Both the position numbers and the translations under genes were made by a program. DNA of 49,704 nucleotides from a virus. Its lineage: Duplodnaviria > Heunggongvirae > Uroviricota > Caudoviricetes. The stretch is from the IMG/VR virus record IMGVR_UViG_3300020049_008481; one strand, written 5' to 3'. The notes below the pieces were generated by a model. The model was not told the origin of the DNA. It saw nothing but the letters and a program-made list of their open reading frames with translations, and did not search any database. This document shows positions 9,903-49,704 of this stretch, in pieces; the first letter of the stretch is position 1; each line of letters opens with the position of its first letter.

Positions 9903-9962
9903 AAATCCTCCTAAGATTTATAGGATAGTATGCACAATACAAAGTGCCATACCCTAAAGTAT

Positions 9963-18572: not shown

Positions 18573-18600
18573 TATTCGGAGTTACTATGAGTTTAATTTA
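18573..18600 (-). promoter_or_regulatory. Putative sigma28/WhiG-type late promoter
   Basis: TAAA-N16-TCCGAATA, 7 nt before ATG 18565. Confidence 0.55.
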
Positions 18601-25925: not shown

Positions 25926-25952
25926 CTTTCGACTAAAAACTCAATGAGTCTA
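25926..25952 (-). promoter_or_regulatory. Putative sigma28/WhiG-type late promoter for lysis genes
   Basis: TAGA-N15-GTCGAAAG, 8 nt before ATG 25917. Confidence 0.45.
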
Positions 25953-27520: not shown

Positions 27521-27523
27521 ACT

Positions 27524-29473: not shown

Positions 29474-29487
29474 TTTAGCTCCTTAAG

Positions 29488-31584: not shown

Positions 31585-32357
31585 AAATTCTTAGCCTGTT
31601 CTATATGAGATAACCTATGAATAAACTCAGCCGTTATTCTATCGTAAGTAGGTGATTTTAGCTGTGAATCACCTGTCATCCTCATGTTCACTGGGTATTC
31701 AAGCCCGTAACCAAATTCCCCTATAAAATCATACTCACCGTTGGCTGCCGTCACCACGTAGTTGAGCGAACTGTAATCAAACAACACCGACAAGTCTGTA
31801 ACATATTTATCAGCATGGTCACCGATTAGAAAAATCAGATTTGTCTTAGTACAACCTACAAGGGTATATCCCTTAGTCTGCATCATTGATGTTATAGATT
31901 TAGCCCCTGAACCCCACATTGACCCTTCGTAATTAATCATGTCAATATGAGGTGGAACTGTAGGGTTGTATTCAATAACAACTATCTTGTGGGGAGTTTC
32001 CATTCTCTTTGCAATTTGATAATCATCACCATCAACATCAATCGAACAAACATCAGCAACTCTAGTCGTATGTTTGTCAATGTTAGTTACAAGAGCGTGT
32101 TCTATCCCTACACTGGGGTAGTTAGCAACTCTTCTTTTAAGCTTTCTGAATAAAGGAGCAGAAGATTCTATGAGTAAGGCGCTAGCGCCCCACTCTTTCC
32201 ATAGCCTGGCAGTGTTAGAACAGAACAGGCCGTCTGCAGCCCCAAACTCTATTACAAAGTTTGACCGCTCTTCTAAGGTAGATATTAGATAGGCTATAAT
32301 ACCGTCCTCACCATTTTGAGAATATACATTGTCCTTTAATTCATTTAAATTCTTCAT
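31581..32357 (-). CDS. FkbM-like methyltransferase
   Basis: VYSQNGEDGII, IEFGAADG, SIDVDGDDY, IEYNP. Confidence 0.75.
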   Translation of the reverse strand: MKNLNELKDNVYSQNGEDGIIAYLISTLEERSNFVIEFGAADGLFCSNTARLWKEWGASALLIESSAPLFRKLKRRVANYPSVGIEHALVTNIDKHTTRVADVCSIDVDGDDYQIAKRMETPHKIVVIEYNPTVPPHIDMINYEGSMWGSGAKSITSMMQTKGYTLVGCTKTNLIFLIGDHADKYVTDLSVLFDYSSLNYVVTAANGEYDFIGEFGYGLEYPVNMRMTGDSQLKSPTYDRITAEFIHRLSHIEQAKNL

Positions 32358-32366
32358 ATCATCTTT

Positions 32367-32576
32367 CTAGAGTGAGCAAGCAATCCAATTTCTTAATAAG
32401 ACCATCAATGGGGCCACATCGTAGACCATTAGATACGGATATCCATTAAATCTATAATGAAGCCTAACACTAAACCATCCTTTTAATAACCAATCACGAT
32501 CAGCATCTTTACCAAAACTATAAGTAGCACTTTTAAGCTTTATTATAGGGAAAGTAATGCCAGCAGGATTACTCAC
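32367..32576 (-). CDS. Small NW-motif protein (69 aa) inside glycosylation cluster
   Basis: Ends LRNWIACSL*. Confidence 0.7.
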   Translation of the reverse strand: MSNPAGITFPIIKLKSATYSFGKDADRDWLLKGWFSVRLHYRFNGYPYLMVYDVAPLMVLLRNWIACSL

Positions 32577-33381
32577 ATTCTATACCATGAATCTTGCAAG
32601 CGTTTCTAAAAACTTCTAAAGACTCTCCCATCCTTAGCTTACTCCATTTAGTCGAACCCTCATCTGAAATCGACCTGTGCCACTTATGGATTAACTTCGC
32701 TTCACCATAATAGACGTTCTTCCACCCATGACTGCGTAGGTGGTACCCATACCACGTGTCCTCATAGTACAACCTAGTTGGGAGCATGGCCCCTCTAGGA
32801 CTTGGGACTGCCTCCTTGTATAGTTCACAATCCCTCATCTCGTTCCAGGCATGACGTTTAGTAAATACAGCAGAACCTATAACGAACAATGAATCCTCTA
32901 TACAGGCTTGATAGCCCTTGGATGGGGTAGACCTCCACCCACGCTGTTTGGGGGCCGTAGCGGGGCCTACAACGCCCCCTGCGGTGATCCTACCAGCAAG
33001 GTCTACCTGCATGGGACCTAAAGAGCCATATGTTGAGTCTGACATCAGTTTATCTAGACATTTTTCTACAGTATTAGGCGTCAACATAACGTCATCATTT
33101 AAAAGCAGCGCCGCTGGATTATGTGTTAGAACCATACCTATATTACATGCTTCTCCATAAAAGATATTAGTATCAATATGGACAACCGCTCCCCCGACGT
33201 TCTCAACCAAAGAGCCGACCCTTAACCTGGTTGGTTCATCTCTTGGTGCCACATCTACAACTAGCAGGTTCTCTGCAATATTAGCTGACCGATGATCATC
33301 GAAGCTTCTTAAAAATGATTCTATCTCATTAACATGATTATAGGTTACTACGATTAGATCAATATCCGCATCTTTTGTCAT
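32569..33381 (-). CDS. Glycosyltransferase family 2
   Basis: LIVVTYN...NIFYGEACN...LLNDD...YYEDTWY...LIHKWHRS. Confidence 0.82.
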   Translation of the reverse strand: MTKDADIDLIVVTYNHVNEIESFLRSFDDHRSANIAENLLVVDVAPRDEPTRLRVGSLVENVGGAVVHIDTNIFYGEACNIGMVLTHNPAALLLNDDVMLTPNTVEKCLDKLMSDSTYGSLGPMQVDLAGRITAGGVVGPATAPKQRGWRSTPSKGYQACIEDSLFVIGSAVFTKRHAWNEMRDCELYKEAVPSPRGAMLPTRLYYEDTWYGYHLRSHGWKNVYYGEAKLIHKWHRSISDEGSTKWSKLRMGESLEVFRNACKIHGIECE

Positions 33382-34075
33382 AAACTCGTAGATCCCCCTG
33401 CTCCATACAATGCTTATTAGCTACTCTTCCATCCCAACCTAAGGTAACATTTTTCTCAGAACATGCCTTAGACCAACCAAGGTCCTCACCTAAATCATGA
33501 TATTGATAGTCAATAGCGTAAGCCTTTGAAGTCATTAATTTCAATGCCATAATAGCAGAAGTAGGGAAGACCCTATCTGAATCTCTTCTATCACAAATTT
33601 TAAAGCTGTTGGAATAAGACGGGTACATGGTACTCTTGCGAGTCATATAAACCTTCCCACCAACAGCATCAAACTCTTCTATAGATTCCATTAAATTAAC
33701 TAATGTCTGATGGTTAAGTAAAATATCAGAATCGATACTCAAGAAATACGATGGCTCTATATCTCTTACGAACCTCAATAATAGGTTTCTAACTTTCACC
33801 ATCCTAGAGTAATTAGGGGATTTTATTCCCCAATCCCTGACGTAAACCCCAGAAGGCTCCTGTTTATTCCGCACTAAAATAAAATCCCTATCTAAACGGG
33901 ATAAATAATCAGTGAATGCCTCGACAGAAGAGTCCCCATCGGGCGCAACAAGAATATACCTTGGCTCTACCTTTATCTTATATGCAGCATCCTCAACATG
34001 ATCAACCCAATCTTTAGCTATCCATGCTCTATCTTTAACCGGACAACCGACTAACAGCGGAGTGTGACCTGTCAT
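33359..34075 (-). CDS. GT-A fold glycosyltransferase
   Basis: VGCPVKDR...MVKVRN...LSIDSDI...GEDLGW. Confidence 0.75.
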   Translation of the reverse strand: MTGHTPLLVGCPVKDRAWIAKDWVDHVEDAAYKIKVEPRYILVAPDGDSSVEAFTDYLSRLDRDFILVRNKQEPSGVYVRDWGIKSPNYSRMVKVRNLLLRFVRDIEPSYFLSIDSDILLNHQTLVNLMESIEEFDAVGGKVYMTRKSTMYPSYSNSFKICDRRDSDRVFPTSAIMALKLMTSKAYAIDYQYHDLGEDLGWSKACSEKNVTLGWDGRVANKHCMEQGDLRVYDKRCGY

Positions 34076-36263: not shown

Positions 36264-36761
36264 ATGCGCCAACTTTTATTAGCATGTTTTATCACAGTAA
36301 TGGTAGTATTGTCAAGTGGTTTTATAGTCGGGGCTGGAGAACCGGAGAAACCACAACCGAAACGGGTAGTTGTAGTAAATACCAAGGTTCCCCGAGACCT
36401 TAAAGCAGAAGCGTATTATATCAAGGTAATGGAATATGCAGCAGCAGTTCAGTACCAGAAAATACTACACTTCGCCTGGCTTATCGAACAGGCAAAGAAA
36501 CAAACCGCATACGGAGTATGGGATAGATTAGCAAATTGCGAATCTAGCGGTAACTGGTCCATTAACACTGGATCATTTGATGGGGGTCTCCAATTCCTCC
36601 CCTCAACGTGGGTTGCTCAGGGTGGCAGGCAGTATGCCCCTTACGCCTGGCAAGCAACTCGTGAGCAGCAAATCACTATAGCTGGGCGGCTATTGGCTTC
36701 CACAAACGGTAGCTACCGTGCTTCTTGGCCAGCTTGTTCAAGGCGGTTAGGATTACCATAA
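36264..36761 (+). CDS. rpf: Stand-alone resuscitation-promoting factor (Rpf) transglycosylase with signal peptide
   Basis: WDRLANCESSGNWSINTG...GGLQFLPSTW...ATREQQI...WPACS; hydrophobic N-terminus; SD AGGAGG. Confidence 0.9.
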   Translation: MRQLLLACFITVMVVLSSGFIVGAGEPEKPQPKRVVVVNTKVPRDLKAEAYYIKVMEYAAAVQYQKILHFAWLIEQAKKQTAYGVWDRLANCESSGNWSINTGSFDGGLQFLPSTWVAQGGRQYAPYAWQATREQQITIAGRLLASTNGSYRASWPACSRRLGLP

Positions 36762-38728: not shown

Positions 38729-38977
38729 CTAGTCATCTACCGGCATCTCGTAACTACAGAAAATCCAGTTAACTGGTTTACAGTTGAAACAGTATGATCT
38801 AAGAGTTCCATAGTATTCCAGAATGTCTAAATATGCTTTAGAGAATTTCATTGGATACTGTTTCTCTGTAATGGTTCTTCCGCATTCATCACAAATATGA
38901 ATAATCTGAATGTCATCTTGTGAATCATTTAAACCTACTATACCTAGAACAGACATGGTTGACTCTCTTAACCCCAC
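38729..38977 (-). CDS. Small NW-motif protein with zinc ribbon
   Basis: CDEC...CFNC; PVNWIFCSYEMPVDD*. Confidence 0.7.
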   Translation of the reverse strand: MGLRESTMSVLGIVGLNDSQDDIQIIHICDECGRTITEKQYPMKFSKAYLDILEYYGTLRSYCFNCKPVNWIFCSYEMPVDD

Positions 38978-39055: not shown

Positions 39056-39259
39056 TTATTTAAGAGAGACAGGAATCCAAGATAAGGGTCCTGTATTTGT
39101 TTCAGACCAACCTGCTAATCTGAACTTCATGTCTGACGCCATTCCTGGTATTCCGTATATGATTGTTGCTACTTGCCCGTTTGAAACTATAATCTTAAGG
39201 TTTAGTTCTGCGTTCCTTATTGATTTATGAAAGGTGTCTGAGTTGTGCCCATCCATCAA
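39056..39259 (-). CDS. Small NW-motif protein
   Basis: Ends PLSWIPVSLK*. Confidence 0.65.
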   Translation of the reverse strand: MMDGHNSDTFHKSIRNAELNLKIIVSNGQVATIIYGIPGMASDMKFRLAGWSETNTGPLSWIPVSLK

Positions 39260-40049
39260 AGTTTCCTAACGGTTCCTTACGCCAAGGCGTATACCATTTT
39301 ACTGGCTTAACTGGTGTAGCCACATGCTCTAGAGGACTATAGTGTGGGGGGTCTGCTGACACAAGCTTATCATACAGGTCCAGATCTTTAACCATATCCC
39401 GTATTCCATCATGGGTTAGATAGGAAACTCGTGCGCATCTTGCAGCCGACACCTTTTTTCTGTTCTCCACGTCTGCCATAAGGCTCTGTTCTAGGTCATC
39501 GTATTTAAGATATGGAGTATGCCATTCCCCATAATCAACATGCTGAACGTGTGAAAAGATCCATGCGTCCTTCATGAGTTCTGCAGCCACCCGTATTTCG
39601 GGTTGAGCATCAGGGCTGCATCTTTGATTAAAGAAGTTCTGCCACTCAGTTGAAGTGATTATAACCGTATGCCACATAAATGGCTCTAACAACCTGTTTG
39701 CAACCTGCTTATGTAAATGCATGTCCTGTAGCTTCTCCACCGTAGCTACAGCATGGTCTCGCTGCTTAAGCCATAGGCTTTCAGCTAAACGCTTACTGAT
39801 AACATCTATTTCCCCGTTGGCGCTCATCCCAGGTCCAGCTATACCCCATTCAATAGGCATAGCTGGGTTATTCTTCACTTCCTCTAAAGTTCTAGAAACC
39901 GGGACAGCCCTAGAGGACCTAGAGTTACGTGAAAAGGCTCTGTGAGTATTTAGCTCTGCCAGAACCCACCTATGGCAAGTGACTTCCATAGAAGTAAGCC
40001 GAACACCATTAGGGGATATGCTATCTAAAATGATCTTTGCAGAGGTCAT
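39225..40049 (-). CDS. thyX: FAD-dependent thymidylate synthase
   Basis: ELNTHRAFSRNSRSSRA (RHR-x7-S-type motif variant), ANRLLEPF, SAARCARVSY, HYSPLEH. Confidence 0.85.
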   Translation of the reverse strand: MTSAKIILDSISPNGVRLTSMEVTCHRWVLAELNTHRAFSRNSRSSRAVPVSRTLEEVKNNPAMPIEWGIAGPGMSANGEIDVISKRLAESLWLKQRDHAVATVEKLQDMHLHKQVANRLLEPFMWHTVIITSTEWQNFFNQRCSPDAQPEIRVAAELMKDAWIFSHVQHVDYGEWHTPYLKYDDLEQSLMADVENRKKVSAARCARVSYLTHDGIRDMVKDLDLYDKLVSADPPHYSPLEHVATPVKPVKWYTPWRKEPLGNFDGWAQLRHLS

Positions 40050-40255
40050 CTATTCTTCCTATCCCGCTTAGCAACCTTACATTTGGGGATATGGATTTTT
40101 TCCAGGAAGTCATCTGGCAGCCAAGTGTCAGGGAACCTTTGTGCCACACAACAGAACGGGCATTTCACTGAGTTAGGATGTCTAACTTTCGGCTTCGGCT
40201 TGATTGGTTCAAGGTCTTCACTACGGAAAACATATCTGTAGCTGTTGTTACTCAT
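40046..40255 (-). CDS. Hypothetical zinc-finger protein
   Basis: CPFC...HIPKC. Confidence 0.55.
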   Translation of the reverse strand: MSNNSYRYVFRSEDLEPIKPKPKVRHPNSVKCPFCCVAQRFPDTWLPDDFLEKIHIPKCKVAKRDRKNR

Positions 40256-40445
40256 GAAAATCTCCTAGATACATTAGTATCCAATTTGGTAGTAATGTTG
40301 ATTCTTGATTTGCTGCTTGTAGGTACTTTTTTATCTTCCAGCAGAAGTAGCATAGGTTCATCCTAAATCTAGCATACGATAGTTGGGCGAATGCGTCTGC
40401 TGTTGAATTTGTGTCTATCATCCCGCATATTTCACATGGTTTCAT
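40248..40445 (-). CDS. Small NW-motif protein with zinc ribbon
   Basis: CEIC...CYFC; LPNWILMYLGDFHE*. Confidence 0.65.
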   Translation of the reverse strand: MKPCEICGMIDTNSTADAFAQLSYARFRMNLCYFCWKIKKYLQAANQESTLLPNWILMYLGDFHE

Positions 40446-40636
40446 GTGTCATACGTTACCTCCTTCATGCTTGCAAAAATCCAGTTGGCTGGTAAAGGTC
40501 TTCTGTAGTTATCAAGGTTGTAGTAATGTATTTGCCCTCGATGGATAGTATTGCCTGTACTTACGTAGTATATCACTGCATACCAAATACTACCTTTATA
40601 GGTTTTGAATTCCCAACGTGTCTGTTCTCTATACAT
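40442..40636 (-). CDS. Small NW-motif protein
   Basis: PANWIFASMKEVTYDT*. Confidence 0.72.
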   Translation of the reverse strand: MYREQTRWEFKTYKGSIWYAVIYYVSTGNTIHRGQIHYYNLDNYRRPLPANWIFASMKEVTYDT

Positions 40637-40664
40637 TTAAACTACAGGCTGTCCAGACAACAAA
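40619..40664. repeat. Left copy of 46-bp perfect inverted repeat (partner 49659..49704)
   Basis: TGTCTGTTCTCTATACATTTAAACTACAGGCTGTCCAGACAACAAA equals reverse complement of the window end. Confidence 0.9.
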
Positions 40665-40859
40665 ATCATATGAAGAAATCCACCATCTACTGTTTTTTAG
40701 ATCGAACGCTAACCATTTAGAACTATCAAATGAACTTGTGCTTGATATTAGACCAGGCAAGATGCCGTGATTAAACCAGAAGTATTGAGCAAACTCACCT
40801 AACCTATAGTGGGTCTCTAGTCTATAAAATAACTGGTTTCTCTTTTTAATCCTGTTCAT
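40629..40859 (-). CDS. Small NW-motif protein
   Basis: FVVWTACSLNV*. Confidence 0.7.
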   Translation of the reverse strand: MNRIKKRNQLFYRLETHYRLGEFAQYFWFNHGILPGLISSTSSFDSSKWLAFDLKNSRWWISSYDFVVWTACSLNV

Positions 40860-41023
40860 TTCTTTTTCTTCTTATTACGGTTATAATAGTTAGGCTTCTT
40901 TTGGGGACGCATATTAACCGGCACCCAGCCCTTAGATCCAAGATGCCATTGCTCATGACATTTAGTGCAACAGCAGAAGTCGTCATCATAGATCATAGAG
41001 TAGGCGTGGTTGCACTTTCCCAT
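40856..41023 (-). CDS. Small Cys-rich protein (55 aa), degenerate motif
   Basis: Hand-translated MGKCNHAY...CCCTKCHEQW...KGWVPVNMR...KKKKK*; TAATG and ATGA overlaps. Confidence 0.55.
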   Translation of the reverse strand: MGKCNHAYSMIYDDDFCCCTKCHEQWHLGSKGWVPVNMRPQKKPNYYNRNKKKKK

Positions 41024-41268
41024 TAGATAGCTAACAAAGTAGTAGCATCATCAAAGTCCATACTGGCGGCAGGTTCTGCCCCAGACATTCTCATACACTT
41101 AAGAACCTTCTTCAAGTTGCTCTTAGTGCAGTTATGGTCTTTTTCTAACTTGTGGGTTAGCCTCACTAAACTAGCAACCTCTTGCTTAAGACGCTCTATC
41201 TCACCCATCATTAAAGTAACTACAGGTGGAGGTATGTCTTCTTCTAAGAGTTCTTCGATTGGTTCCAT
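41023..41268 (-). CDS. Hypothetical coiled-coil protein (81 aa)
   Basis: Heptad pattern; downstream of sigmaA promoter. Confidence 0.65.
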   Translation of the reverse strand: MEPIEELLEEDIPPPVVTLMMGEIERLKQEVASLVRLTHKLEKDHNCTKSNLKKVLKCMRMSGAEPAASMDFDDATTLLAI

Positions 41269-41294: not shown

Positions 41295-41323
41295 ACTATA
41301 ACATACCTGACATATAATGTCAA
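41295..41323 (-). promoter_or_regulatory. SigmaA/sigma70 promoter
   Basis: TTGACA-N17-TATAGT. Confidence 0.78.
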
Positions 41324-41517
41324 GGCATTATTGAGCATATTGTCCAGTCTACTAGCGTGGTTATGGTAGAATAAAATGTTGGTCCGCCTAGACTTATTTT
41401 AGGTACAGCTATCTCTAATTTTAGTTCAGTCTCAGAGTATGTTAATGAAATAACTGAAGAGATATTGAAAACTACGAAAAAAACACCGGGGCCAATCAGG
41501 TGTATCTGTTTAATCAT
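41320..41517 (-). CDS. Small NW-motif protein
   Basis: LVDWTICSIMP*. Confidence 0.65.
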   Translation of the reverse strand: MIKQIHLIGPGVFFVVFNISSVISLTYSETELKLEIAVPKISLGGPTFYSTITTLVDWTICSIMP

Positions 41518-41553: not shown

Positions 41554-41727
41554 CTACCCCGTCTCCGGGTCGTGGCGTTTGGTTGTGGCTGCTGTCCAGT
41601 TTGGGGTGCATGTGGCTTTGCCGTATTCTGTTGTATGGAATTGTCCTGTTAGTGTGTCGTATGTTAGGTCTGTGATGCCTCTGTTGTTTAGTGAAATAAA
41701 GTAGTATCTGTAGTATGTGTGTTTCAT
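41554..41727 (-). CDS. Small NW-motif protein
   Basis: Start at ATGA overlap 41727 (MKHTYY); TPNWTAATTK... Confidence 0.68.
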   Translation of the reverse strand: MKHTYYRYYFISLNNRGITDLTYDTLTGQFHTTEYGKATCTPNWTAATTKRHDPETG

Positions 41728-41870
41728 TTTATGCTGGCTGCTGTCCACCCTGGGTATCCGTGGTGTTGGGCTTTTATGACTATGGAGAATCCTTGCCGGT
41801 CTCCCCAGTATAGGCTTGGGCTGCTTGGGTTGTCGTATGCGATTCTGTAGATTGTTTGTAGTTGTTTCAT
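41724..41870 (-). CDS. Small NW-motif protein (48 aa, not in track)
   Basis: MKQLQTIY...YPGWTAASIK*; ATGA overlaps at both ends. Confidence 0.7.
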   Translation of the reverse strand: MKQLQTIYRIAYDNPSSPSLYWGDRQGFSIVIKAQHHGYPGWTAASIK

Positions 41871-42097
41871 TTTATTGAAGCTACGGTCCAGTTTTTTAAC
41901 TGTAGGCTCGTGGGGGCTGGGGCGTATCTGCCTCTTGCTCTGAATAGGTATAGAAATATTCCGTCATAGTTCCGGTGGACGCAACGGGGCTGGGGTTGGA
42001 ACTCACGCACACGATGCCGTGCTAGTCGCCGGTCGGTTTCAAGTTCATATGTTATCATGGCGTGTTCTGATTTGTAGATTAGATACTGTTGGTACAT
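41867..42097 (-). CDS. Small NW-motif protein
   Basis: Probable start MYQQ at 42097; LKNWTVASIK*. Confidence 0.68.
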   Translation of the reverse strand: MYQQYLIYKSEHAMITYELETDRRLARHRVREFQPQPRCVHRNYDGIFLYLFRARGRYAPAPTSLQLKNWTVASIK

Positions 42098-42282
42098 GGT
42101 TTTCTCAGTGGTTTTATGGATGCTACAGTCCAGTTTGTGGGGTAACAGTTCCAAGTCCCATAATGGGGTCGGTTGGTTTCGAAGAAGCCGGGGGTTGATC
42201 CTTCATAAAGGTAGGCTACAGTGTCCCCGTTGTCGTCGTGGTACAATTGTAGGTTGTTGTCTACTACTGTGAAGTGTTTCAT
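42079..42282 (-). CDS. Small NW-motif protein
   Basis: PTNWTVASIKPLRKPCTNSI*. Confidence 0.7.
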   Translation of the reverse strand: MKHFTVVDNNLQLYHDDNGDTVAYLYEGSTPGFFETNRPHYGTWNCYPTNWTVASIKPLRKPCTNSI

Positions 42283-42428
42283 TTTCTAACTATAATCCAA
42301 TTTTTCATTAGGTATGCCCAGTATGAATCTCGCAAATACACTCTGCCTCCATCGTAGAGTATTTTTGATACAGTGCCTGGCCACTCTAGGCGTGCAAATC
42401 CTGGTTGCTGATGTTTTATATTGAGCAT
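42279..42428 (-). CDS. Small NW-motif protein (49 aa, not in track)
   Basis: MLNIKHQQPGFARLEWP...MKNWIIVRK*. Confidence 0.68.
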   Translation of the reverse strand: MLNIKHQQPGFARLEWPGTVSKILYDGGRVYLRDSYWAYLMKNWIIVRK

Positions 42429-42568
42429 AGGATTATATTCCCTGGGTAACAGCTGGGTCCATTAACAGTAAAGTATACGAAACCCCTTGAGTAATATACC
42501 GTTATCTTTTCCGACCATTTTATTGCTGCGAAGCCAGTGTGATCTTGGTGCACTATTTTAGGTTTCAT
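42416..42568 (-). CDS. Small NW-motif protein, degenerate (50 aa, not in track)
   Basis: MKPKIVHQDHTGFAAIKWS...PGNIILCSI*. Confidence 0.62.
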   Translation of the reverse strand: MKPKIVHQDHTGFAAIKWSEKITVYYSRGFVYFTVNGPSCYPGNIILCSI

Positions 42569-42723
42569 TTTATTGTGGCCGCTGTCCAGTAAGCATTATA
42601 CATGATGTCGCCATAGAATTGGAATGTTCCTGAGTTGTGTGCATAAAACATTTCTATACTGCTGAAACGCCAGCGAAATAAAGTTGCACTCATATTACTG
42701 TGGTTTTTTAAGTACGTGTACAT
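42565..42723 (-). CDS. Small NW-motif protein (52 aa, not in track)
   Basis: MYTYLKNH...NAYWTAATIK*. Confidence 0.68.
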   Translation of the reverse strand: MYTYLKNHSNMSATLFRWRFSSIEMFYAHNSGTFQFYGDIMYNAYWTAATIK

Positions 42724-42914
42724 CAGCTTATTGTGCATACTATCCAGTTCATTTTATCGCCAGGGGATCTAAAGTCCATTGTTGTAGTGCTTAGCATCTT
42801 TAGCGTAACGCCATGATTTGCACTATATACGAATATAACATCGGAAGGGGACGAGTTAACTCTCCATCCAAATGATGCAACACCTAGATTTGAATTGTGA
42901 CTGCGGATTACCAT
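42723..42914 (-). CDS. Small NW-motif protein
   Basis: KMNWIVCTIS*. Confidence 0.68.
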   Translation of the reverse strand: MVIRSHNSNLGVASFGWRVNSSPSDVIFVYSANHGVTLKMLSTTTMDFRSPGDKMNWIVCTIS

Positions 42915-42923
42915 TTGTTATCT

Positions 42924-43151
42924 TTATTCTGATGGGCAAACGATCCAAGCGGAAGGGATTATCATCCAGCCGCTGCACCCTACACAATACATCAACCAGT
43001 CCATTGTGTCAAGGGGGGCAAATTGGTATCCCCAATTGAACTTGCATTGGCACGGATACTTGGTTGAGTTGTGCCCTTTTACGTTAAAGAATAGATTGTA
43101 ATTAACTGAGTTGCTGGGTGGTTTATTTGGGTTAACTGGTACTACAGACAT
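42924..43151 (-). CDS. Small NW-motif protein with zinc-binding Cys
   Basis: Probable start MSVVP at 43151; CQC...CVGC; PSAWIVCPSE*. Confidence 0.62.
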   Translation of the reverse strand: MSVVPVNPNKPPSNSVNYNLFFNVKGHNSTKYPCQCKFNWGYQFAPLDTMDWLMYCVGCSGWMIIPSAWIVCPSE

Positions 43152-43330
43152 ACCAAAACCCAGTTCGTGGGTAGTTGCATGTAGGTGTGGCAGACCGGGC
43201 AATCAATGTAGTTGCCGTCGGTCCATACCGAAATACGGATGGGGAGTTTATGGTGCAACCACTTGTAATGTTTACATGCAGGTTTTTCTCTGGCACCAAC
43301 GAAGGTGCCAGTTATTAGAGCAATCGTCAC
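43142..43330 (-). CDS. Small NW-motif protein with zinc ribbon
   Basis: CKH...CPVC; PTNWVLVCL*. Confidence 0.65.
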   Translation of the reverse strand: MTIALITGTFVGAREKPACKHYKWLHHKLPIRISVWTDGNYIDCPVCHTYMQLPTNWVLVCL

Positions 43331-43358
43331 ATAAAGTACAACGGTTCTTCGATTAATA

Positions 43359-43841
43359 TCATTCCCTCAACTTAGAACACTCCCTGGCAATCTGCCTTCT
43401 TCTCTGTCGGTTGCAAGAATCTATAATACAAATTCCATCCAAGTGATCCATTTCATGTTGGAACACTACAGCCAAATCTCCGGTTGCATCAATCTCTAGA
43501 GGATTGAAGTTTTCATCCCAACCATGTAGCTTAAGCTCATTTAGCCTTTGCATCGTAACTTGATGTCCAGGCGCTGACAGGCAGCCCTCGGTGGATTCTA
43601 TAACTGTGCCTTCAATTGGCAGATCGAACCAAGGGTTAAACACTGCCCCACGGTCTACACCGATGTTCCACACGAAACATCTACCTGAAACATTAATTTG
43701 TGGGGCAGCTAAGCCGACGCCATCAAACTTGTCCATGATGCTAAACATGTTATCTATGAGTAACTTGTATTGATCTTGGTGTTCTTCTAAGTCAAACAGG
43801 ATTGCTTTTCTTTTTAGAATTTCATTTCCATAGTAAATCAT
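43359..43841 (-). CDS. def: Peptide deformylase
   Basis: GVGLAAPQI, EGCLS, QHEMDHLDG; probable start MIYYG at ATGA overlap 43841. Confidence 0.93.
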   Translation of the reverse strand: MIYYGNEILKRKAILFDLEEHQDQYKLLIDNMFSIMDKFDGVGLAAPQINVSGRCFVWNIGVDRGAVFNPWFDLPIEGTVIESTEGCLSAPGHQVTMQRLNELKLHGWDENFNPLEIDATGDLAVVFQHEMDHLDGICIIDSCNRQRRRQIARECSKLRE

Positions 43842-43996
43842 TTTATGCTCCCGACTATCCAATTGGACATTTTAAAAAATTCGTTATCAGTTGTAAATCC
43901 ACTTATACCTAACATAAGCTCTCCAAAAATATAGGACAGTATGATTATGTCACATTCATATACTGACTCGATTATTCTCTTACCTGGCATATACAT
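43838..43996 (-). CDS. Small NW-motif protein (52 aa, not in track)
   Basis: MYMPGKRI...MSNWIVGSIK*; fills the gap between sigma and def exactly. Confidence 0.68.
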   Translation of the reverse strand: MYMPGKRIIESVYECDIIILSYIFGELMLGISGFTTDNEFFKMSNWIVGSIK

Positions 43997-44737
43997 TTAG
44001 AGACTTAACGATTGGAAACTGAGCCTGGCGTCTTCAATGGCCCGACCGTGGATCTGGCAGACTCTTGATTCTGTTATTCCCATTAACGTTCCTATTTCTG
44101 ATAAAGGTAAGTTTTCGTAATAATACAATGTAAAGATTATGCGTTCCCTATCGGAAAGGCCATTGATGATCTTCACAAGATAGTCTCTTACTAACGCGAT
44201 CGAATAGTTTGCATCTAAAGTGTCGTTGCTTTCAATAGACTCACCTACTGTGCTATAGTTCTCATCGTTAATTGGCGCATCAAGTGTCCCAATAGTACCG
44301 ATTGCAGAATGCGACTCTGCTTTCTTTACGAAGGTCGTGCTGACATCTAAGTGATCACTTATTTCTTGGATAGTGACTGGCCTATCGTATTCATTCTCGA
44401 GAATTTCTCGAGCTTCCTTGACTTCTTTTGATCTAGATTTTACACTTCGTGGAACCCAGTCGTTAGCTCTAAGCTTATCAATCATTGAGCCACGTATTCT
44501 AATTACAGCGAATGATTCAAACTTTACACCACGCTCCGGGTCATACCGTTTAATTGCTTCCATTAAACCGAATACGCCATCTGACTCTAAATCTTCTTTG
44601 TCGATATTGGATGGCAACGTCGAGTGTAGCCTGCTTGCCACAAATTTTACTAAAGGAAGATATGCTGTAACAAGTTCTTCGAATAAAATGTTTGAATGTG
44701 TTTCTTTATATTTAACCCATGTTTCCCTAGATACCAT
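43997..44737 (-). CDS. RNA polymerase sigma factor, FliA/WhiG (sigma28) family
   Basis: YLPLVKFVASR, DLESDGVFGL..AIKRYDPERGVKFESFA..RIRGSMIDKLR..DWVPRS, LSEIG..MGITESRVCQIH. Confidence 0.9.
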   Translation of the reverse strand: MVSRETWVKYKETHSNILFEELVTAYLPLVKFVASRLHSTLPSNIDKEDLESDGVFGLMEAIKRYDPERGVKFESFAVIRIRGSMIDKLRANDWVPRSVKSRSKEVKEAREILENEYDRPVTIQEISDHLDVSTTFVKKAESHSAIGTIGTLDAPINDENYSTVGESIESNDTLDANYSIALVRDYLVKIINGLSDRERIIFTLYYYENLPLSEIGTLMGITESRVCQIHGRAIEDARLSFQSLSL

Positions 44738-44743
44738 CTTTGT

Positions 44744-44752
44744 ATTATAGCA
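44744..44752 (-). promoter_or_regulatory. Extended -10 promoter, leaderless (sigma gene)
   Basis: TGC TATAAT then 6 nt then ATG 44737. Confidence 0.65.
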
Positions 44753-44912
44753 TATCCTTCAAAGAGACAGGAATAAAATTGATGGGAAGTAGAATTATCG
44801 TTCCGTCCGTTGCGTTCTTGACAGGCCAGATTTGGACTGCAATAGTACGGGCAGAGAAAGTCAACTATGGGACTTCTGTTTTACCCAGGTAAAATTGGGG
44901 AGTAAACTTCAT
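44745..44912 (-). pseudogene. NW-motif family member interrupted by in-frame TAG (44865-44867)
   Basis: MKFTPQFYLGKTEVP*LTFS...PINFIPVSLKDML*; ATGA-coupled start. Confidence 0.5.
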
Positions 44913-45106
44913 AATATAACTGGAATGAAATTTAATGGGAACACGTAGAAGGAACTCCATGACGACGTTGGTAAAGTTCTTTTGCGATGTTGAGTCCACC
45001 ATTCATCTTGTGTTAACTCATATGGAAGAGATGAAACCCAAAGGATGTGTTGAAAATCAGGGTACATCTTTGGCGTATGAGGCAAGTAGCTCATTTTGAA
45101 GTTCAT
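44909..45106 (-). CDS. Small NW-motif protein (W->F variant)
   Basis: Start at ATGA overlap 45106; PLNFIPVIL*. Confidence 0.62.
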   Translation of the reverse strand: MNFKMSYLPHTPKMYPDFQHILWVSSLPYELTQDEWWTQHRKRTLPTSSWSSFYVFPLNFIPVIL

Positions 45107-45261
45107 TTTAGACATCCGACTATCCAATTATATGGGCACCAGTATCTAGAGGTGTAATGGTTTCCAGGTTTATGGTAGGTAACCATTAAAAGATTTCTGA
45201 CTGGTGACTTTCTATCTATTTTCGATATCTTCTGATGTGTTTCAATGCTTATTCTAGACAT
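45103..45261 (-). CDS. Small NW-motif protein (52 aa, not in track)
   Basis: MSRISIET...PYNWIVGCLK*. Confidence 0.68.
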   Translation of the reverse strand: MSRISIETHQKISKIDRKSPVRNLLMVTYHKPGNHYTSRYWCPYNWIVGCLK

Positions 45262-45404
45262 CCAACAATCCAATTCAACGGCAAATTAAAGTACCCTCTC
45301 ATAGCTTTGCAAATAAAAAACTGATGGGTGTTAGAAAAAGACAGATATACAGAAATATAATATCCGTGCCCATCAGAAAAACTCATTTTTATAAGCTTGA
45401 TCAT
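45249..45404 (-). CDS. Small NW-motif protein (51 aa, not in track)
   Basis: MIKLIKMS...PLNWIVGCLE*. Confidence 0.68.
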   Translation of the reverse strand: MIKLIKMSFSDGHGYYISVYLSFSNTHQFFICKAMRGYFNLPLNWIVGCLE

Positions 45405-45407
45405 GTA

Positions 45408-45662
45408 TCAAGTGTCGGCTTCTTTCACAGACACTGCAATCCAATTACCTGGAAGGACAAGAGCCTGCCGGTCCTTGAATTGCAGGAAACAAAATTTACT
45501 CTGATGATACCAGATAGCACTCACGTCATGTTCCCAAACAGGATGGAAATCATCACGGTACATGGTGCTGTAGGCTTCGATGCAGTCGAATATGAATCTT
45601 AAATCCTGTACAACCCCTGGCCTGAACATACTGAGGAAAGGTTCATTAATTTCAAAACTCAT
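45408..45662 (-). CDS. Small NW-motif protein
   Basis: PGNWIAVSVKEADT*. Confidence 0.72.
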   Translation of the reverse strand: MSFEINEPFLSMFRPGVVQDLRFIFDCIEAYSTMYRDDFHPVWEHDVSAIWYHQSKFCFLQFKDRQALVLPGNWIAVSVKEADT

Positions 45663-45835
45663 ATAAACCCTAAAATCCAGTTATTAATTTTGGCACATCG
45701 CCAAGTATTAGCGTTTGTTTGTTGGGTGAAAATGGCGCAGTATCCATCTCGGATATGAAATTCGACTAGAGGGCTAGCTGGCTTTTCAAAGTTACCTACC
45801 ACTACAGTTCCCAACCCAGCTACGAAAAAGATCAT
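45659..45835 (-). CDS. Small NW-motif protein (58 aa, not in track)
   Basis: MIFFVAGL...INNWILGFI*; ATGA overlaps at both ends. Confidence 0.66.
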   Translation of the reverse strand: MIFFVAGLGTVVVGNFEKPASPLVEFHIRDGYCAIFTQQTNANTWRCAKINNWILGFI

Positions 45836-46047
45836 TTAAGCGAGACCGCAATCCAATTGTTCATGTAAATCATGCATTCTGCTAAAAAACATAAACCAAA
45901 CGAAAGAACTCCATCATCGGACCCGTCAGGGTCAGGGTCTTCATTCGCATACCATAAAAAGTCACCATCACTATGAAGACACTCAGTGTCATGAGCAATA
46001 GGTGCATCTATTGGAATGATCATGTAGTGTCCATACTGTGATCCCAT
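45832..46047 (-). CDS. Small NW-motif protein
   Basis: MNNWIAVSLK*. Confidence 0.72.
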   Translation of the reverse strand: MGSQYGHYMIIPIDAPIAHDTECLHSDGDFLWYANEDPDPDGSDDGVLSFGLCFLAECMIYMNNWIAVSLK

Positions 46048-46111
46048 GAGAGGCCCCTAGATCGCTCTGTGTGCCGTTTCTAGACGGTTTATGGGGTAGG
46101 GGTGCCTAGAG

Positions 46112-46327
46112 CTAATCCTGGCCATTAGGATACGTTTCCAGGGTCTGCCAAATAAACCGGCCAGGAGAAGCACTGCCATAAAAATCATCCCAAACTTTTT
46201 CAGGCACATCAATATATTTCCAACGCACCCCGTCATCGAAGATTACATGAACAATCTTTTTCTTTTTATCATAATAGGCCCCATCAACTCTACTGGAACC
46301 AGCGAAAGCACGTCTAAGATATTTCAT
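46112..46327 (-). CDS. KTSC-domain protein
   Basis: SSRVDGAYYD...HVIF..G..WKY.DVP..VW..F..SASPGRF. Confidence 0.82.
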   Translation of the reverse strand: MKYLRRAFAGSSRVDGAYYDKKKKIVHVIFDDGVRWKYIDVPEKVWDDFYGSASPGRFIWQTLETYPNGQD

Positions 46328-46332
46328 ATAAA

Positions 46333-47910
46333 CTACTTTACCATACCTGTCAAGTGGTTTTTAACAATTAACCCATACGGAGAAGGAGTCCCCAACCCAT
46401 TACTAGTAACAAGAGTAGGCCCATCACAATTTTCACCCTTGTCCCAGCCCCAGGCTGTATAAGAAAACCCTCTGGCGTCTGCGTAACTCATTGTATTCTC
46501 AGTGAAACCATCAGAAACACCGGAGCACATCCACTCACCGAATTCACCAATCAGAATAGGGAACGAAGAACTTAAACCACCAGAAGCAAAGCTGCCATCC
46601 AAATAGGCGACGTTCCTCACATTAGCCCCACTAGAAGTGTAAGTATGAATGCTTGCTGCGATCTGGCCCGTTAAATCAACAGGTCGATAATTCATCCAGT
46701 TGTCCATAGAGTTACCCCAACCAAGCCCCTCAATAAATATCACGTTCTTTGAGCCAGTATTACGGATAGCGTTCAAAAGCTCCTGGGTTCCCACAATGTC
46801 AATAGTCGAGCCAACAGGCTGCTGAGGAAAATCCTCAAACTTATAAGTGTAAGTACAGCCGTTCAAATAACAGCCCCAACCGTAAGCTACAGCCTGACTA
46901 TAATCCCCTTGGCAAGCAGGAGTATGGCACCAAATACGTGGCTCGTTATACAGGTCGAAAGCAACGGCAGGATTAGTTTTATACTGCTCAGCAACTAAAC
47001 CCCAGAACGGTAGAGAATGTTCACGGTTAGGTCCAACATCCTGACTCATAGCAATAGTATTACCGGGAGATGACCAGTGAAGATCCAAAATCACATACCT
47101 GCCAGAAGCAGTAAGCTTATCTACCAAAGACTTGACAAAGGCTCTATACGGTTCACCAGAATAAGGGCCAGGGGCCGTACCCAACCAGCAAGACTCATTG
47201 AGCGGCAGCCTAACTGTGTTTATAGAATGCTCACTAGAACCAGCTTTATCCCAAGTGGACAAAGAAGAAACAACAGTATCAGTATAGGCGGGGCTACGCC
47301 CACCAACCACTTCATCATCGTCAGTCATAAAACCTGCCCAGCCTGGGTTCTCACTGTAAGCCACACACCTGAACTCAAGGCTAGGTCTATTCACACCACG
47401 CAACTGCGCAATAGCACCAGATTCGTTAACAAGGTTCTTACCACTAACCTTCAAAGACTTGACTGATGGGGCCACGTCATCGTTAGTGATCTGCCCGAAC
47501 CCCAAACCCCAAAATCCACCCATCTTAGCGTTAACTGGCTTAGTGAAAGAAAACACCACATACTCATTGGCTTCAACAGTTGTGTCACCGTACACTACAA
47601 CACTTACGGTCTTAGAAGTTTCACCTGGGGCAAACGTAACCACACCAGATCCGGCTGCATAATCAATCAAGTCAGCCTGACTGGCAGGCGCATTACCAAC
47701 CACCCTGGTAGTCCAATTCACACTAACAGGCACGGTCGACGGGGCAGTTAAAGAGACATTCTGGACCAAGACGGCAGTCCCAGTGTTGCCTTCTACGACT
47801 TCACCAGTTCCGGGTACCACTAAAGGTAAGGTGGCAGCACTACCTACTGGTGTCGTTAAGACGGCAGATAGGATGATTACAGCAGATAGAAGTTTAAGTA
47901 AAAGGCTCAT
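46333..47910 (-). CDS. Secreted glycoside hydrolase family 5 (cellulase-like) with Calx-beta domain
   Basis: Signal peptide; DYAAGSGVVTFAPGETSKTV...GDTTVEANE (Calx-beta); RGVN, ILDLHW, LYNEP, IHTY, IGEFG, AWGW (GH5). Confidence 0.88.
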   Translation of the reverse strand: MSLLLKLLSAVIILSAVLTTPVGSAATLPLVVPGTGEVVEGNTGTAVLVQNVSLTAPSTVPVSVNWTTRVVGNAPASQADLIDYAAGSGVVTFAPGETSKTVSVVVYGDTTVEANEYVVFSFTKPVNAKMGGFWGLGFGQITNDDVAPSVKSLKVSGKNLVNESGAIAQLRGVNRPSLEFRCVAYSENPGWAGFMTDDDEVVGGRSPAYTDTVVSSLSTWDKAGSSEHSINTVRLPLNESCWLGTAPGPYSGEPYRAFVKSLVDKLTASGRYVILDLHWSSPGNTIAMSQDVGPNREHSLPFWGLVAEQYKTNPAVAFDLYNEPRIWCHTPACQGDYSQAVAYGWGCYLNGCTYTYKFEDFPQQPVGSTIDIVGTQELLNAIRNTGSKNVIFIEGLGWGNSMDNWMNYRPVDLTGQIAASIHTYTSSGANVRNVAYLDGSFASGGLSSSFPILIGEFGEWMCSGVSDGFTENTMSYADARGFSYTAWGWDKGENCDGPTLVTSNGLGTPSPYGLIVKNHLTGMVK

Positions 47911-47931
47911 ACGTTTGTTCTCGGAATATGG

Positions 47932-48102
47932 CTAAGATAAAGAACAGGCTATCCAGTTGAAATCTATAGTTTGGATGTCACGGGCATACCCATCTAATAT
48001 ATCTGTTCCGTACACATAAAACTTTAGACCATCGTGGTAATAAAGGGTAAGCCTATAGAGTGTCAAGTTTATCCTTAAAGCTCTCTCTAGAATTACAGAC
48101 AC
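47932..48102 (-). CDS. Small NW-motif protein (56 aa, not in track)
   Basis: GTG start; DFNWIACSLS*. Confidence 0.64.
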   Translation of the reverse strand: MSVILERALRINLTLYRLTLYYHDGLKFYVYGTDILDGYARDIQTIDFNWIACSLS

Positions 48103-48299
48103 ACTGGTATCCAGTTTGTTTTAACCCATCCACCTTGCCGGTGCCTGTCTGATGTCCAAGTGATACCAATTACCCCCGTATGATTATAACTCAGCACTAA
48201 ATTATTCTGGATATCATTAAACTGAAATTGTGCCCAAAACCCTATAAAAGCACCTTCAGAATTATAGGTGCCGCCTTCATCAACTAAATGCAATGTCAT
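48093..48299 (-). CDS. Small NW-motif protein
   Basis: KTNWIPVCL*. Confidence 0.7.
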   Translation of the reverse strand: MTLHLVDEGGTYNSEGAFIGFWAQFQFNDIQNNLVLSYNHTGVIGITWTSDRHRQGGWVKTNWIPVCL

Positions 48300-48484
48300 C
48301 GTAAACTCACCACAATCCAGTTATAATCATGACGATGCCCTACATGGGAAACCCAAACCTGCCCCATAGGCTTAAAAAAGTAATACAAACGTAATTTGGG
48401 ATCACTAAGCCAAAAAAATAATATAGCGTCAGAGTATCTTTCTGAAATTCTCATCTGATTCCATATAGTTTCTGAATCAGTCAC
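48296..48484 (-). CDS. Small NW-motif protein
   Basis: DYNWIVVSLR*. Confidence 0.72.
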   Translation of the reverse strand: MTDSETIWNQMRISERYSDAILFFWLSDPKLRLYYFFKPMGQVWVSHVGHRHDYNWIVVSLR

Positions 48485-48696
48485 TTCAAACTCGCAATAA
48501 TCCAGTTAGGCATTCTCGACGGGTTGCGACGATCTTCCACAAGAAGATACAATGTAAGACCAATGTAATCATCATCCACTCCAAGCATAGGCTGTCCCAT
48601 CCAAGTTATAGCATTCCTGTACTGAGGTGCGTCATCACTCCAGAAAAATTCTGCATATAGCCCCGATGAATCAACCCATGCCTCTAAATTACTCAC
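48481..48696 (-). CDS. Small NW-motif protein
   Basis: MPNWIIASLK*. Confidence 0.72.
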   Translation of the reverse strand: MSNLEAWVDSSGLYAEFFWSDDAPQYRNAITWMGQPMLGVDDDYIGLTLYLLVEDRRNPSRMPNWIIASLK

Positions 48697-48877
48697 CTAA
48701 AGACCCCAAAATCCAATTTAGCTCCCACACGTTATTCACATCCATAAGAAGAAGCCCGCTGGAACTACTGTGCTAGCGCAGCCAAAGGTGATGAGTATTT
48801 CCGGTCTCATCGCTAAAGGGGGTAAATCGAAATGTAGCCCATGGCTGGGATGGCTCCCCCATCCGTAAAAGTCTCAC
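48689..48877 (-). pseudogene. NW-motif family member interrupted by in-frame TAG (48773-48775)
   Basis: GTGA-coupled start MRLLRMGE...HLWLR*HSSS...ELNWILGSLGE*. Confidence 0.5.
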
Positions 48878-49035
48878 TTTAAGCTCGCCAAAATCCAAGA
48901 GAATGAACAGTTGTCACGTTGATCCGAAATCACTACCAGCCCCGAGTTAGGATACCACCATAGATAAAGTGAATCATCAAACTTAAAACACCTAGAAGAC
49001 TGAGGATCAGCATACCTCCACCTGTAGTTACTCAA
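48874..49035 (-). CDS. Small NW-motif protein (53 aa, not in track)
   Basis: TTG start uncertain; SFSWILASLK*. Confidence 0.58.
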   Translation of the reverse strand: MSNYRWRYADPQSSRCFKFDDSLYLWWYPNSGLVVISDQRDNCSFSWILASLK

Positions 49036-49095
49036 AATTTAAATCCCATTTCACGTACTCGCAGCCACTGTAATAATCTACATGCCTTGACATTC

Positions 49096-49281
49096 TCAAT
49101 TTAAACTCACCGCTATCCAGGGAACCAGAAAAGGCTGATGATCAAGGCCACTAATGAAACGAGAATTTTCATACATATAAATCACGAAAGAACACGTGTT
49201 AGTGAACATCCAATAACAGAGAAGGACGGTAGTATCACTCCAGAAGAATTCTGCACCATACATAGTAGATGTCATTTTCAA
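49096..49281 (-). CDS. Small NW-motif protein
   Basis: LVPWIAVSLN*. Confidence 0.7.
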   Translation of the reverse strand: MKMTSTMYGAEFFWSDTTVLLCYWMFTNTCSFVIYMYENSRFISGLDHQPFLVPWIAVSLN

Positions 49282-49454
49282 TTTAAACTCATCCCCACCA
49301 TAATCCAGTTAACCCGACAAACTGAAATCGAAGCACCAGAGTAAGCGCATAAACACCTGAACCCATTAAAATCATACACCCCAACAACAGTAACATCATA
49401 ATAATTTCCAAACTGGAAATCAACAGAACCTGGCACAATACGGGTTGTTTTCAT
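49278..49454 (-). CDS. Small NW-motif protein
   Basis: Start at ATGA overlap 49454 (MKTT); RVNWIMVGMSLN*. Confidence 0.68.
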   Translation of the reverse strand: MKTTRIVPGSVDFQFGNYYDVTVVGVYDFNGFRCLCAYSGASISVCRVNWIMVGMSLN

Positions 49455-49630
49455 TTCAAACTCACTAGAACCCAATTAACCGTACAACCCCACCTATCAA
49501 ACTCAGAAACCTCAGGATCTTTAGCCCCAGAAAGCCCTGCATTAAGGCCATTCCAACCATCTAACAAATGCATAAACCAAACCAAATACACCACCCGTTT
49601 GGGTTGTATTGTATCAAGTGTTTGATACAT
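49451..49630 (-). CDS. Small NW-motif protein (59 aa, not in track)
   Basis: MYQTLDTI...TVNWVLVSLK*. Confidence 0.68.
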   Translation of the reverse strand: MYQTLDTIQPKRVVYLVWFMHLLDGWNGLNAGLSGAKDPEVSEFDRWGCTVNWVLVSLK

Positions 49631-49658
49631 TATTGTTCTAGTGGCATGGGTTGTGCCA

Positions 49659-49704
49659 TTTGTTGTCTGGACAGCCTGTAGTTTAAATGTATAGAGAACA
49701 GACA
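49659..49704. repeat. Right copy of 46-bp perfect inverted repeat, truncated by window end
   Basis: Exact reverse complement of 40619..40664. Confidence 0.9.

Follow-up and report, generated by a model that had tools for sequence, protein, structure and literature searches.

The window analysed here is a stretch of 49,704 nucleotides (nt) from the minus strand of an IMG/VR phage record (IMGVR_UViG_3300020049_008481, Caudoviricetes); other assemblies of the same phage reach up to 130.7 kb. From approximately 49.6 down to 38.7 kb, the minus strand of the window holds a tightly packed array of approximately 34 small open reading frames (ORFs) of 48-92 codons, whose members end in variants of one short C-terminal peptide, here called the tail. 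The part of each protein that precedes it is called the body. Conservation of the tail is at the level of the peptide and not of the DNA. It is slightly more probable than not that these genes form an early-operon family that arose by local duplication, in which the bodies turn over very fast and the tail is kept by selection at the peptide level, probably as a docking label. As a test of the preliminary description of this DNA, in which the tail-coding sequence was a DNA junction that propagates locally, the outcome is mostly ordinary, namely, local duplication plus purifying selection.

Arrays of tiny ORFans at the ends of phage genomes are among the least understood phage regions. In this array, two ideas that look alike, a DNA recombination handle and a protein address label, can be separated, and the protein reading is the one that fits. 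The label outlasts its carrier proteins, as related phages retain the tail and not the bodies. In addition, the tail is a concrete bait for a partner search, and such a partner would account for approximately 34 genes together.

The C-terminal tail and its distribution

The tail is found on 33 small ORFs and on one outlier at 32367-32576, which are numbered T01 to T34 in order of descending coordinate, and has the form [N/S]-W-[I/T/V]-x-x-[S/C]-[L/I]-K. More fully, its common form is [L]-P-x-N-W-[I/T/V]-hydrophobic-small-[S/C]-[L/I]-K, followed by the stop codon. The family extends beyond the span that was first described, with further members at 38729, 39056, 40248, 40442, 40629, and 41320. 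A position matrix for the tail gives 33 matches in the window, versus 0-5 in shuffled sequence; the minus strand at 32.4-49.5 kb accounts for 31 of the 33, all within 11 codons of a stop. The motif makes up the last 7-8 codons of each ORF, in a constant frame, and is not intergenic. The ORFs are coding, as codon usage favours frame 0 over the other frames in 31 of 32 genes. Ser is present in 19 of 29 tails, Leu or Ile in 23, and Lys in 14, and Gly precedes Ser in 5; a Pro is located 1-4 residues ahead of the tail in 17 of 33 genes, versus approximately 15% expected, mostly at 38.7-45.6 kb. Most neighbouring small genes of the array are joined by 4-nt stop/start overlaps (ATGA, GTGA, or TTGA).

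Variants of the tail group by position, as the preliminary description had claimed. In Mantel tests, rank distance correlates negatively with tail identity, both for nucleotides (rho -0.285, a value reached in 0 of 2000 permutations) and for peptides (rho -0.218, p=0.0015). Three sub-types are seen: NWT..IK at 40.6-42.6 kb, NWIV[G/C] at 42.7-45.3 kb, and NWI..SLK at 45.4-49.5 kb. The examples on which the claim was built are also present on the minus strand at the coordinates given for them. For instance, 41554 and 41724 have TGGACAGCAGCCA in common, with TGGACAGCGGCCACAATAAAATGA in 42565; 43838 and 45103 have an identical AATTGGATAGTCGG, with AATTGGATTGTTGGATGTCTA in 45249; and NFIPV ends both 44745 and 44909. 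Likewise, Ser is mostly encoded by AGY at 48.3-49.5 kb, in 6 of 7 tails versus approximately 32% in the bodies (binomial P of approximately 0.006). A glycosylation sequon, N-W-T, was considered as a family feature in view of the nearby glycosyltransferase cluster and rejected, as Thr occupies that position only in the 40.6-42.6 kb sub-type.

The positional grouping had led to a model in which approximately 25 bp, comprising the tail and the stop/start junction, act as a homology handle at the DNA level, spreading by gene conversion and allowing cassettes to be captured or shuffled. Other observations would also agree with such a handle: bodies are unrelated even where tails are most similar, within and between phages; the order of tail types differs between the window and a related contig, L234 (see below); and a terminal inverted copy in the window starts at the tail of T29.

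Conservation of the tail as a peptide and as DNA

Outside the Trp codon, the information content of the tail is highest at the second codon position, lower at the first, and lowest at the third. The Ser/Cys column splits into T/A at its first base and G/C at its second, that is, into TCN, AGY, and TGY codons. Thus, tail Ser comes from both AGY and TCN and, similarly, tail Leu from both TTR and CTN. Synonymous usage in the tails equals the body background for N, S, L, K, C, and T, and codon skew is confined to ATT (position 3), GTG/GCG (positions 4-5), and ATA (position 7). Near pairs of tails, at a rank distance of at most 3, use the same codon for the same residue in 41% of cases, versus 37% for far pairs (p=0.14). 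When peptides are held fixed and codons are resampled, the longest common run (14 nt, P=0.37) and the number of pairs with runs of at least 12 nt (2, P=0.41) are as expected, and the mean common run length is slightly above the expectation (5.96 vs. 5.70). These results show that the tail is conserved as a peptide and not as DNA.

Consequently, a DNA handle is very unlikely in this array. Its third positions are free, its Ser and Leu codons belong to unrelated families, neighbours have no excess of synonymous identity, and the longest identical runs, of 13-14 nt, are at the level of chance given the peptides. The junctions also lack the signals of a mobile or regulatory element. A scan for promoters produced 30 promoter-like sites, versus 28.8 in shuffled sequence, with no systematic overlap with the tails; no common RNA hairpin was seen in 12 folded junctions (z from -1.6 to +1.85); and no inverted repeat was found inside the tails. 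The window ORFs that were compared with Pfam or PHROGs include no integrase or recombinase, the sequence beyond the array head being unassembled; the only nucleases in these scans, all found elsewhere, were RuvC-like, GIY-YIG, and HNH. In another assembly of the phage, G000, a breakpoint falls approximately 30 nt upstream of a tail and outside it. What stands of the earlier model is the local inheritance of tail sub-types, which is what tandem duplication would produce. In contrast, synonymous identity, run lengths, and free third positions speak against a DNA junction spread by gene conversion, and the use of tail DNA as a homology handle for cassette shuffling is left unsupported. Neither process is needed for the positional clusters, which descent fits best.

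Only the last three to four codons of the tail bear an extra constraint at the nucleic-acid level. Most of the codon skew falls in these 3′ codons, where a GNGAG-type Shine-Dalgarno-like sequence and an A-rich spacer precede the start of the following, overlapping gene. For the AGY serines at 48.3-49.5 kb, this constraint and shared descent are two possible sources, and both fit. The whole element could even be read as a translation junction, a coupling or re-initiation site for the next gene whose peptide is a by-product. This would agree with the overlaps at most junctions, with codons 4-8 turning G-rich and then A-rich so as to provide GNGAG and a spacer before the next start, and with a junction RNA that is, if anything, less structured than shuffled sequence. 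Nevertheless, N-W-I, the most conserved part, lies 15-24 nt upstream of the next start and varies at third positions only, and tails are kept both in genes without an overlapping downstream start (T09, T13, T18, and T34) and in those with extra residues after the tail (T12, T24, T27, T30, and T33). Furthermore, related phages conserve L-P-x-N-W and not the start-adjacent part. With this evidence, a junction whose peptide is incidental appears highly improbable.

Bodies of the tailed proteins

Once stripped of their tails, the bodies carry no usable phylogenetic signal. Their pairwise local alignments have a mean z of 0.21, and a leave-one-out body profile gives a mean z of 0.25 (p=0.25), with z>2 in only 4 of 33 bodies. 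The best pairs are T03/T06, T11/T26, T22/T23, and T20/T21. As the preliminary description had it, neighbouring bodies are little alike, with the exception of 42279/42416 (38% over 29 residues) and of the AEFFWSD patch in 48481/49096. Three residual pairs, T22/T23, T20/T21, and T27/T28, are adjacent genes and, like the Mantel tests and the Pro ahead of the tail, are counted for local descent. In composition, the bodies are high in C, W, Y, H, and F and low in A and E, and their N-termini have in common only M-K or M-S starts.

Models built by AlphaFold2 (AF2) with an alignment of the paralogues, of modest confidence, predict small beta meanders followed by an unpaired, coiled tail for T08 and T07, with predicted local distance difference test (pLDDT) scores of 66 and 64, respectively. 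Judging from these models, the bodies may have a common fold.

Searches for homologues of the array proteins were negative. Among 1.84 billion representative proteins, T12 matched only itself, apart from two spurious repeat matches, and a family profile compared with 5.8 billion proteins found only itself. No match was obtained in INPHARED, either by tblastn with T34, T12, and T33 or by megablast with the array. Similarly, the ESM Atlas gave nothing usable, Foldseek gave no match in the PDB at E≤0.001, and Pfam and PHROGs gave none on the bodies. Patterns of the tail DNA had 106 and at least 119 single, chance-level matches in IMG/VR, with no array among the matches listed.

Tails in related phages

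Other assemblies of the same phage are identical to the window through the array. The putative major capsid protein (13467-14429, Pfam PF27364) led to more distant relatives. Its 899 homologues, 62-68% identical, lie on contigs of 100-160 kb with a G+C content of 43%-70% at the capsid locus and make up a large, widespread, and apparently undescribed phage clade. N-W-I tail arrays were absent from the whole records G001 and G004 and from the sigma factor neighbourhoods of G006-G010, whose sigma factors are 35-39% identical to that of the window. No close relative was found among viral contigs with sigma factor and ThyX queries, nor among metagenome contigs with a T25 query, in searches that excluded records near the genome of the window.

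The relatives that do bear tails are three short contigs of only 1-2.6 kb, L234, L235, and L236. The L234 lineage comes from Logan SRR29078250 and the L235/L236 lineage from JGI 3300020037 and ENA ERZ15185635 and ERZ28613981, whereas the source samples of the phage of the window are JGI 3300020037, 3300020046, and 3300005664. In L234, where the sigma factor is 63% identical, six small genes with tails are located upstream of the sigma factor gene, with endings that include …CPNNWLVCSALL, …IPKNWIGCSAR, …LPLNWIVCGLDHEL, and …LPANWFLESVV. In L235 and L236 (sigma factor 59-60% identical), …LPNNWIMV precedes the sigma factor gene and …LPKNWITV follows it. Tails in these relatives end in CSALL, GCSAR, LVGKE, MV, or TV, and none has GSL-K. 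Between L234 and the window, the sigma factor genes have 73% nucleotide identity and the small genes align in their tails alone; therefore, the constant across the lineage is L-P-x-N-W-hydrophobic near the C-terminus. These contigs show that the tail core L-P-x-N-W-[ILF] persists in related lineages, on small proteins that are otherwise unrelated. By comparison, the S-L-K ending is particular to the phage of the window, and the bodies are wholly unconserved between lineages.

Local rearrangements, in-frame stops, and contig ends

Traces of small rearrangements exist within the array. The bodies of T03 and T06 are otherwise unalignable, and have a direct patch where 21 of 22 nt are identical (the AEFFWSD patch). 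A perfect inverted repeat of 22 nt joins 41215-41236 and 49011-49032; it encodes IPPPVVT in the gene at 41023-41268 and, in antisense, SNYRWRY at the start of T04, ahead of which there is a stranded ORF of 23 codons. In addition, T05, T16, and gene c of L234 (at L234 445-447) each have one in-frame TAG, after which the frame runs on to a normal tail. These stops point to decay of array members, and the genes that bear them could be pseudogenes or undergo programmed read-through. As all three in-frame stops found in tailed genes are TAG, a general code change with TAG recoding was considered; it was discarded, as several good genes terminate in TAG, table 11 leaves the long genes open, and the 61-kb record of the phage has no tRNA. 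Separately, 17 nt of the T20 tail DNA (42729-42745) have an exact inverted match in an intergenic gap at 9923-9939, which is within chance for 50 kb.

The ends of the contigs are also rearranged. None of the assemblies extends more than approximately 300 nt upstream of T01, and the terminal piece is an inverted part of the array, different in each case and attached through a microhomology of 4-8 nt; the ends compared are 49598-49704 of the window, 1-135 of G000, 1-285 of L005, and 1-204 of L008. In the window, this segment contains two inverted joins, at microhomologies of 4 and 7 nt, is missing from three other assemblies, and finishes with 46 nt that are a perfect inverted copy of 40619-40664. 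The ends of G000 and L005 are inverted second copies, 96-97% identical, of the T11/T12 junction and of T25. Breakpoints at contig ends are not consistently within tails. For T01, the assemblies L005, L006, and L008 agree on a GTG start preceded by a GGGAGGG ribosome-binding site and a TTGACA promoter-like site; a divergent gene is seen in the two that extend further upstream, L005 and L008. In part, the joins may be chimeras of assembly or amplification; beyond the head of the array there is probably either a second, inverted, and partly duplicated array or the physical end of the genome. The segments at 40.6-41.2 and 49.0-49.7 kb do not align in their interiors, for which reason an old inverted duplication of the former at the latter was rejected.

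These traces raise the alternative that bodies are replaced rather than diverged. Illegitimate events (microhomology joins, template switches, inverted patches, and frameshifts) would rewrite the N-termini ahead of a retained tail, with breakpoints in the bodies and not in the tail, and the survivors would be those that keep the tail in frame. The T04 N-terminus with its stranded ORF, the T03/T06 identity within unalignable bodies, the in-frame stops, the inverted second copies joined at 4-8-nt microhomologies, and the odd composition of the bodies would all be explained in this manner. Yet just two internal patches were found, and the array is not enriched in exact repeats of at least 15 nt; the joins at contig ends may be chimeras, as mentioned above; and, at the distances available, body similarity would be lost just as well through neutral divergence. 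Turnover by replacement is thus a fairly unlikely account of the array as a whole.

Origin of the array and possible role of the tail

In the explanation that we favour, local duplication with a tail selected as a peptide, the family would have expanded in tandem, and neighbours would consequently carry the most similar tail sub-types. Synonymous sites would have become saturated since duplication, the bodies would diverge at a near-neutral pace or be partly overwritten by small illegitimate insertions, and selection would preserve both the open frame of each gene and its tail. As a short linear motif, exposed and serving for docking or as an address, the tail would probably be recognised by a partner common to all members, of phage or host origin. 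Such a role is suggested because the tail is exposed, C-terminal, conserved across lineages, and carried by dissimilar proteins; its exposure is predicted by the two AF2 models (pLDDT 64-66), where it is a coil after a beta body.

Several points weigh against this explanation. The direct T03/T06 patch and the inverted patch between T04 and 41023-41268 show that local patch transfer occurs. Adjacent bodies have a mean z of 0.44, versus 0.21 overall, a weak difference (p=0.12), and body similarity shows no overall dependence on distance (p=0.68); since duplication predicts that neighbouring bodies should be the most alike, so weak an adjacency trend counts against duplication of whole genes. Body and tail similarity are uncorrelated (rho 0.02). 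The CxxC…CxxC bodies of T31 and T33 look like folds other than beta meanders. Tail likeness between L234 and the window is out of gene order, with gene c resembling T13 and gene d resembling T12. Finally, a partner for the tail was not found, and its docking or address function is one that we infer.

A further reading, which is distinctly improbable, takes the tail for a portable address label and the array for a protein nursery, where microhomology-mediated insertions and inversions write new sequence before L-P-x-N-W-I. If this were true, any open frame ending in the tail would be passed to the same partner, with outcomes such as particle loading, timed destruction, or modification by glycosyltransferases at Ser/Cys; across the whole phage lineage, selection would act on the tail, for which the bodies would be raw material. 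Any tie between the conserved Ser/Cys/Thr position of the tail and the glycosyltransferase cluster of this phage (see below) is speculation.

The tailed genes and their genome setting

All tailed genes are on the minus strand. The array starts with T01 (49451-49630, tail NWVLVSLK), whose 5′ end in the window, above approximately 49597, is chimeric or rearranged. T02 (49278-49454, NWIMVGMSLN) has an ATGA overlap with T01, and T03 (49096-49275, PWIAVSLN) holds the patch in common with T06 (48481-48696, NWIIASLK). Between these two are T04 (48874-49035, SWILASLK), with an N-terminus from the inverted copy of 41215-41236, and T05 (48689-48877, NWILGSLGE), whose in-frame TAG is at 48773-48775. T07 (48296-48484, NWIVVSLR) is modelled as all-beta and T08 (48093-48299, NWIPVCL) as four beta strands at residues 19-59, and T09 (47932-48102, NWIACSLS) has TAG as its stop codon. 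Two untagged genes, a KTSC-domain gene (46112-46327) and a Calx-beta/GH5 gene (46333-47910), both on the minus strand, interrupt the array at this point.

The array resumes with T10 (45832-46047, NWIAVSLK), T11 (45659-45835, NWILGFI), and T12 (45408-45662, NWIAVSVK plus 4 residues). The tail of T12 is like that of L234 gene d, and that of T13 (45249-45404, NWIVGCLE) matches L234 gene c at 9 of 12 residues. They are followed by T14 (45103-45261, NWIVGCLK), T15 (44909-45106, NFIPVIL), and T16 (44745-44912, NFIPVSLK plus 3 residues), which has its in-frame TAG at 44865-44867. An untagged WhiG/FliA-like sigma factor gene (43997-44737, minus strand) comes next within the array and served as the anchor for finding relatives; after T17 (43838-43996, NWIVGSIK) there is another untagged gene, for a peptide deformylase (43359-43841, minus strand).

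Further along are T18 (43142-43330, NWVLVCL), T19 (42924-43202, AWIVCPSE), T20 (42723-42914, NWIVCTIS), and T21 (42565-42738, YWTAATIK), and then T22 (42416-42568, NIILCSI), whose body is weakly like that of T23 (42279-42428, NWIIVRK). The tail NWTVASIK is found both in T24 (42079-42282), with 10 residues after it, and in T25 (41867-42097), of which a 97% identical, partial, inverted second copy is at the end of contig L005. T26 (41724-41870, GWTAASIK), T27 (41554-41727, NWTAATTK plus 7 residues), and T28 (41320-41517, DWTICSIMP) follow, the last with a strong promoter-like site after it (41323-41295). A few untagged small genes at 40.0-41.3 kb also interrupt the array. The tail region of T29 (40629-40859, VWTACSLNV) is the left arm of the 46-nt inverted repeat; T30 (40442-40636) ends in NWIFASMK plus 6 residues, and T31 (40248-40445) has a CxxC…CxxC body and a tail-like NWILMYLGDFHE. 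After an interruption by ThyX (39225-40049), T32 (39056-39259, SWIPVSLK) follows directly, and then T33 (38729-38956), another CxxC…CxxC body, with the tail NWIFCSY plus 6 residues. The outlier, T34 (32367-32576, NWIACSL), sits within a glycosyltransferase cluster.

The best explanation of the region is that it is the early-looking end of a phage genome of approximately 131 kb, from an uncultured actinobacterial host, with the array behind one promoter-like site. The best cellular matches of the sigma factor (approximately 44% identity) are in Acidimicrobiales and other Actinomycetota, and an Rpf-like transglycosylase is encoded at 36264-36761; an actinobacterial host fits because of both. The cluster around T34 is one for sugar modification (25933-34075), with at least six GT2-type glycosyltransferases, a GT11 fucosyltransferase-like gene, an NAD-dependent epimerase, and an FkbM methyltransferase. 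Elsewhere in the window, the terminase gene (18598-22719) is interrupted, with an intein-splicing domain match at the end of a 753-residue ORF that overlaps an HNH endonuclease ORF.

Comparison with known systems

Short terminal peptides that direct diverse proteins to a common destination have parallels in other systems. The internal proteins of phage T4 reportedly carry a capsid targeting sequence (work attributed to Mullaney and Black and to the Krisch laboratory), which is said to be N-terminal and cleaved by the prohead protease. The likeness to the T4 sequence lies in diverse, fast-evolving small proteins from a variable locus that have one short terminal address peptide in common. In contrast, the tail in the window is C-terminal, and its genes are in an early-type operon approximately 25 kb from the head genes.

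Encapsulin targeting peptides are closer in position. They are C-terminal, of approximately 10 residues, with the consensus …GIGSLKG and native forms such as …LTVGSLRR, and they dock on the inner face of a shell with the HK97 fold, which is common to phage capsid proteins (Altenburg et al. 2021, PMC7925596). Like them, the tails of the window are C-terminal peptides of approximately 10 residues with hydrophobic residues, located on otherwise unrelated proteins at most 11 residues from the stop, and some, for instance …IVGSIK and …AVSLK, can be compared with them in a small-Ser-Leu core and a basic end. Nevertheless, Gly precedes Ser in only the 5 of 29 tails mentioned above, related phages conserve L-P-x-N-W-hydrophobic and not GSL-K, and the tailed genes are approximately 25 kb from the putative capsid gene (13467-14429) instead of beside it. 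The resemblance of …VGSIK and …AVSLK to encapsulin peptides is weakened by the tails of the relatives. Co-folding of the putative capsid protein with T10 gave a score of 0.00, which speaks neither for nor against binding.

At the DNA level, the published precedent for modular shuffling mediated by a motif is the promoter-early stem-loop (PeSL) of T4-type phages, an intergenic element made of a sigma-70-like promoter and a terminator stem-loop that recombines as DNA (Arbiol et al. 2010, PMC2839356; Comeau et al. 2014, PMC4122927). Similar to PeSLs, the tail is a short conserved motif that recurs among small ORFan genes in a hyperplastic, early-expressed phage region. Integron attC sites are a second DNA-level comparison, from which the array differs in that no site-specific recombinase was found by the scans of the window ORFs and the tails have no hairpin-forming inverted repeat. 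As its junctions have neither a promoter signal nor a common hairpin, the tail is not a DNA element of the PeSL or attC type; it differs from PeSLs in lying inside the coding sequence, where it is conserved as a peptide with its third positions free.

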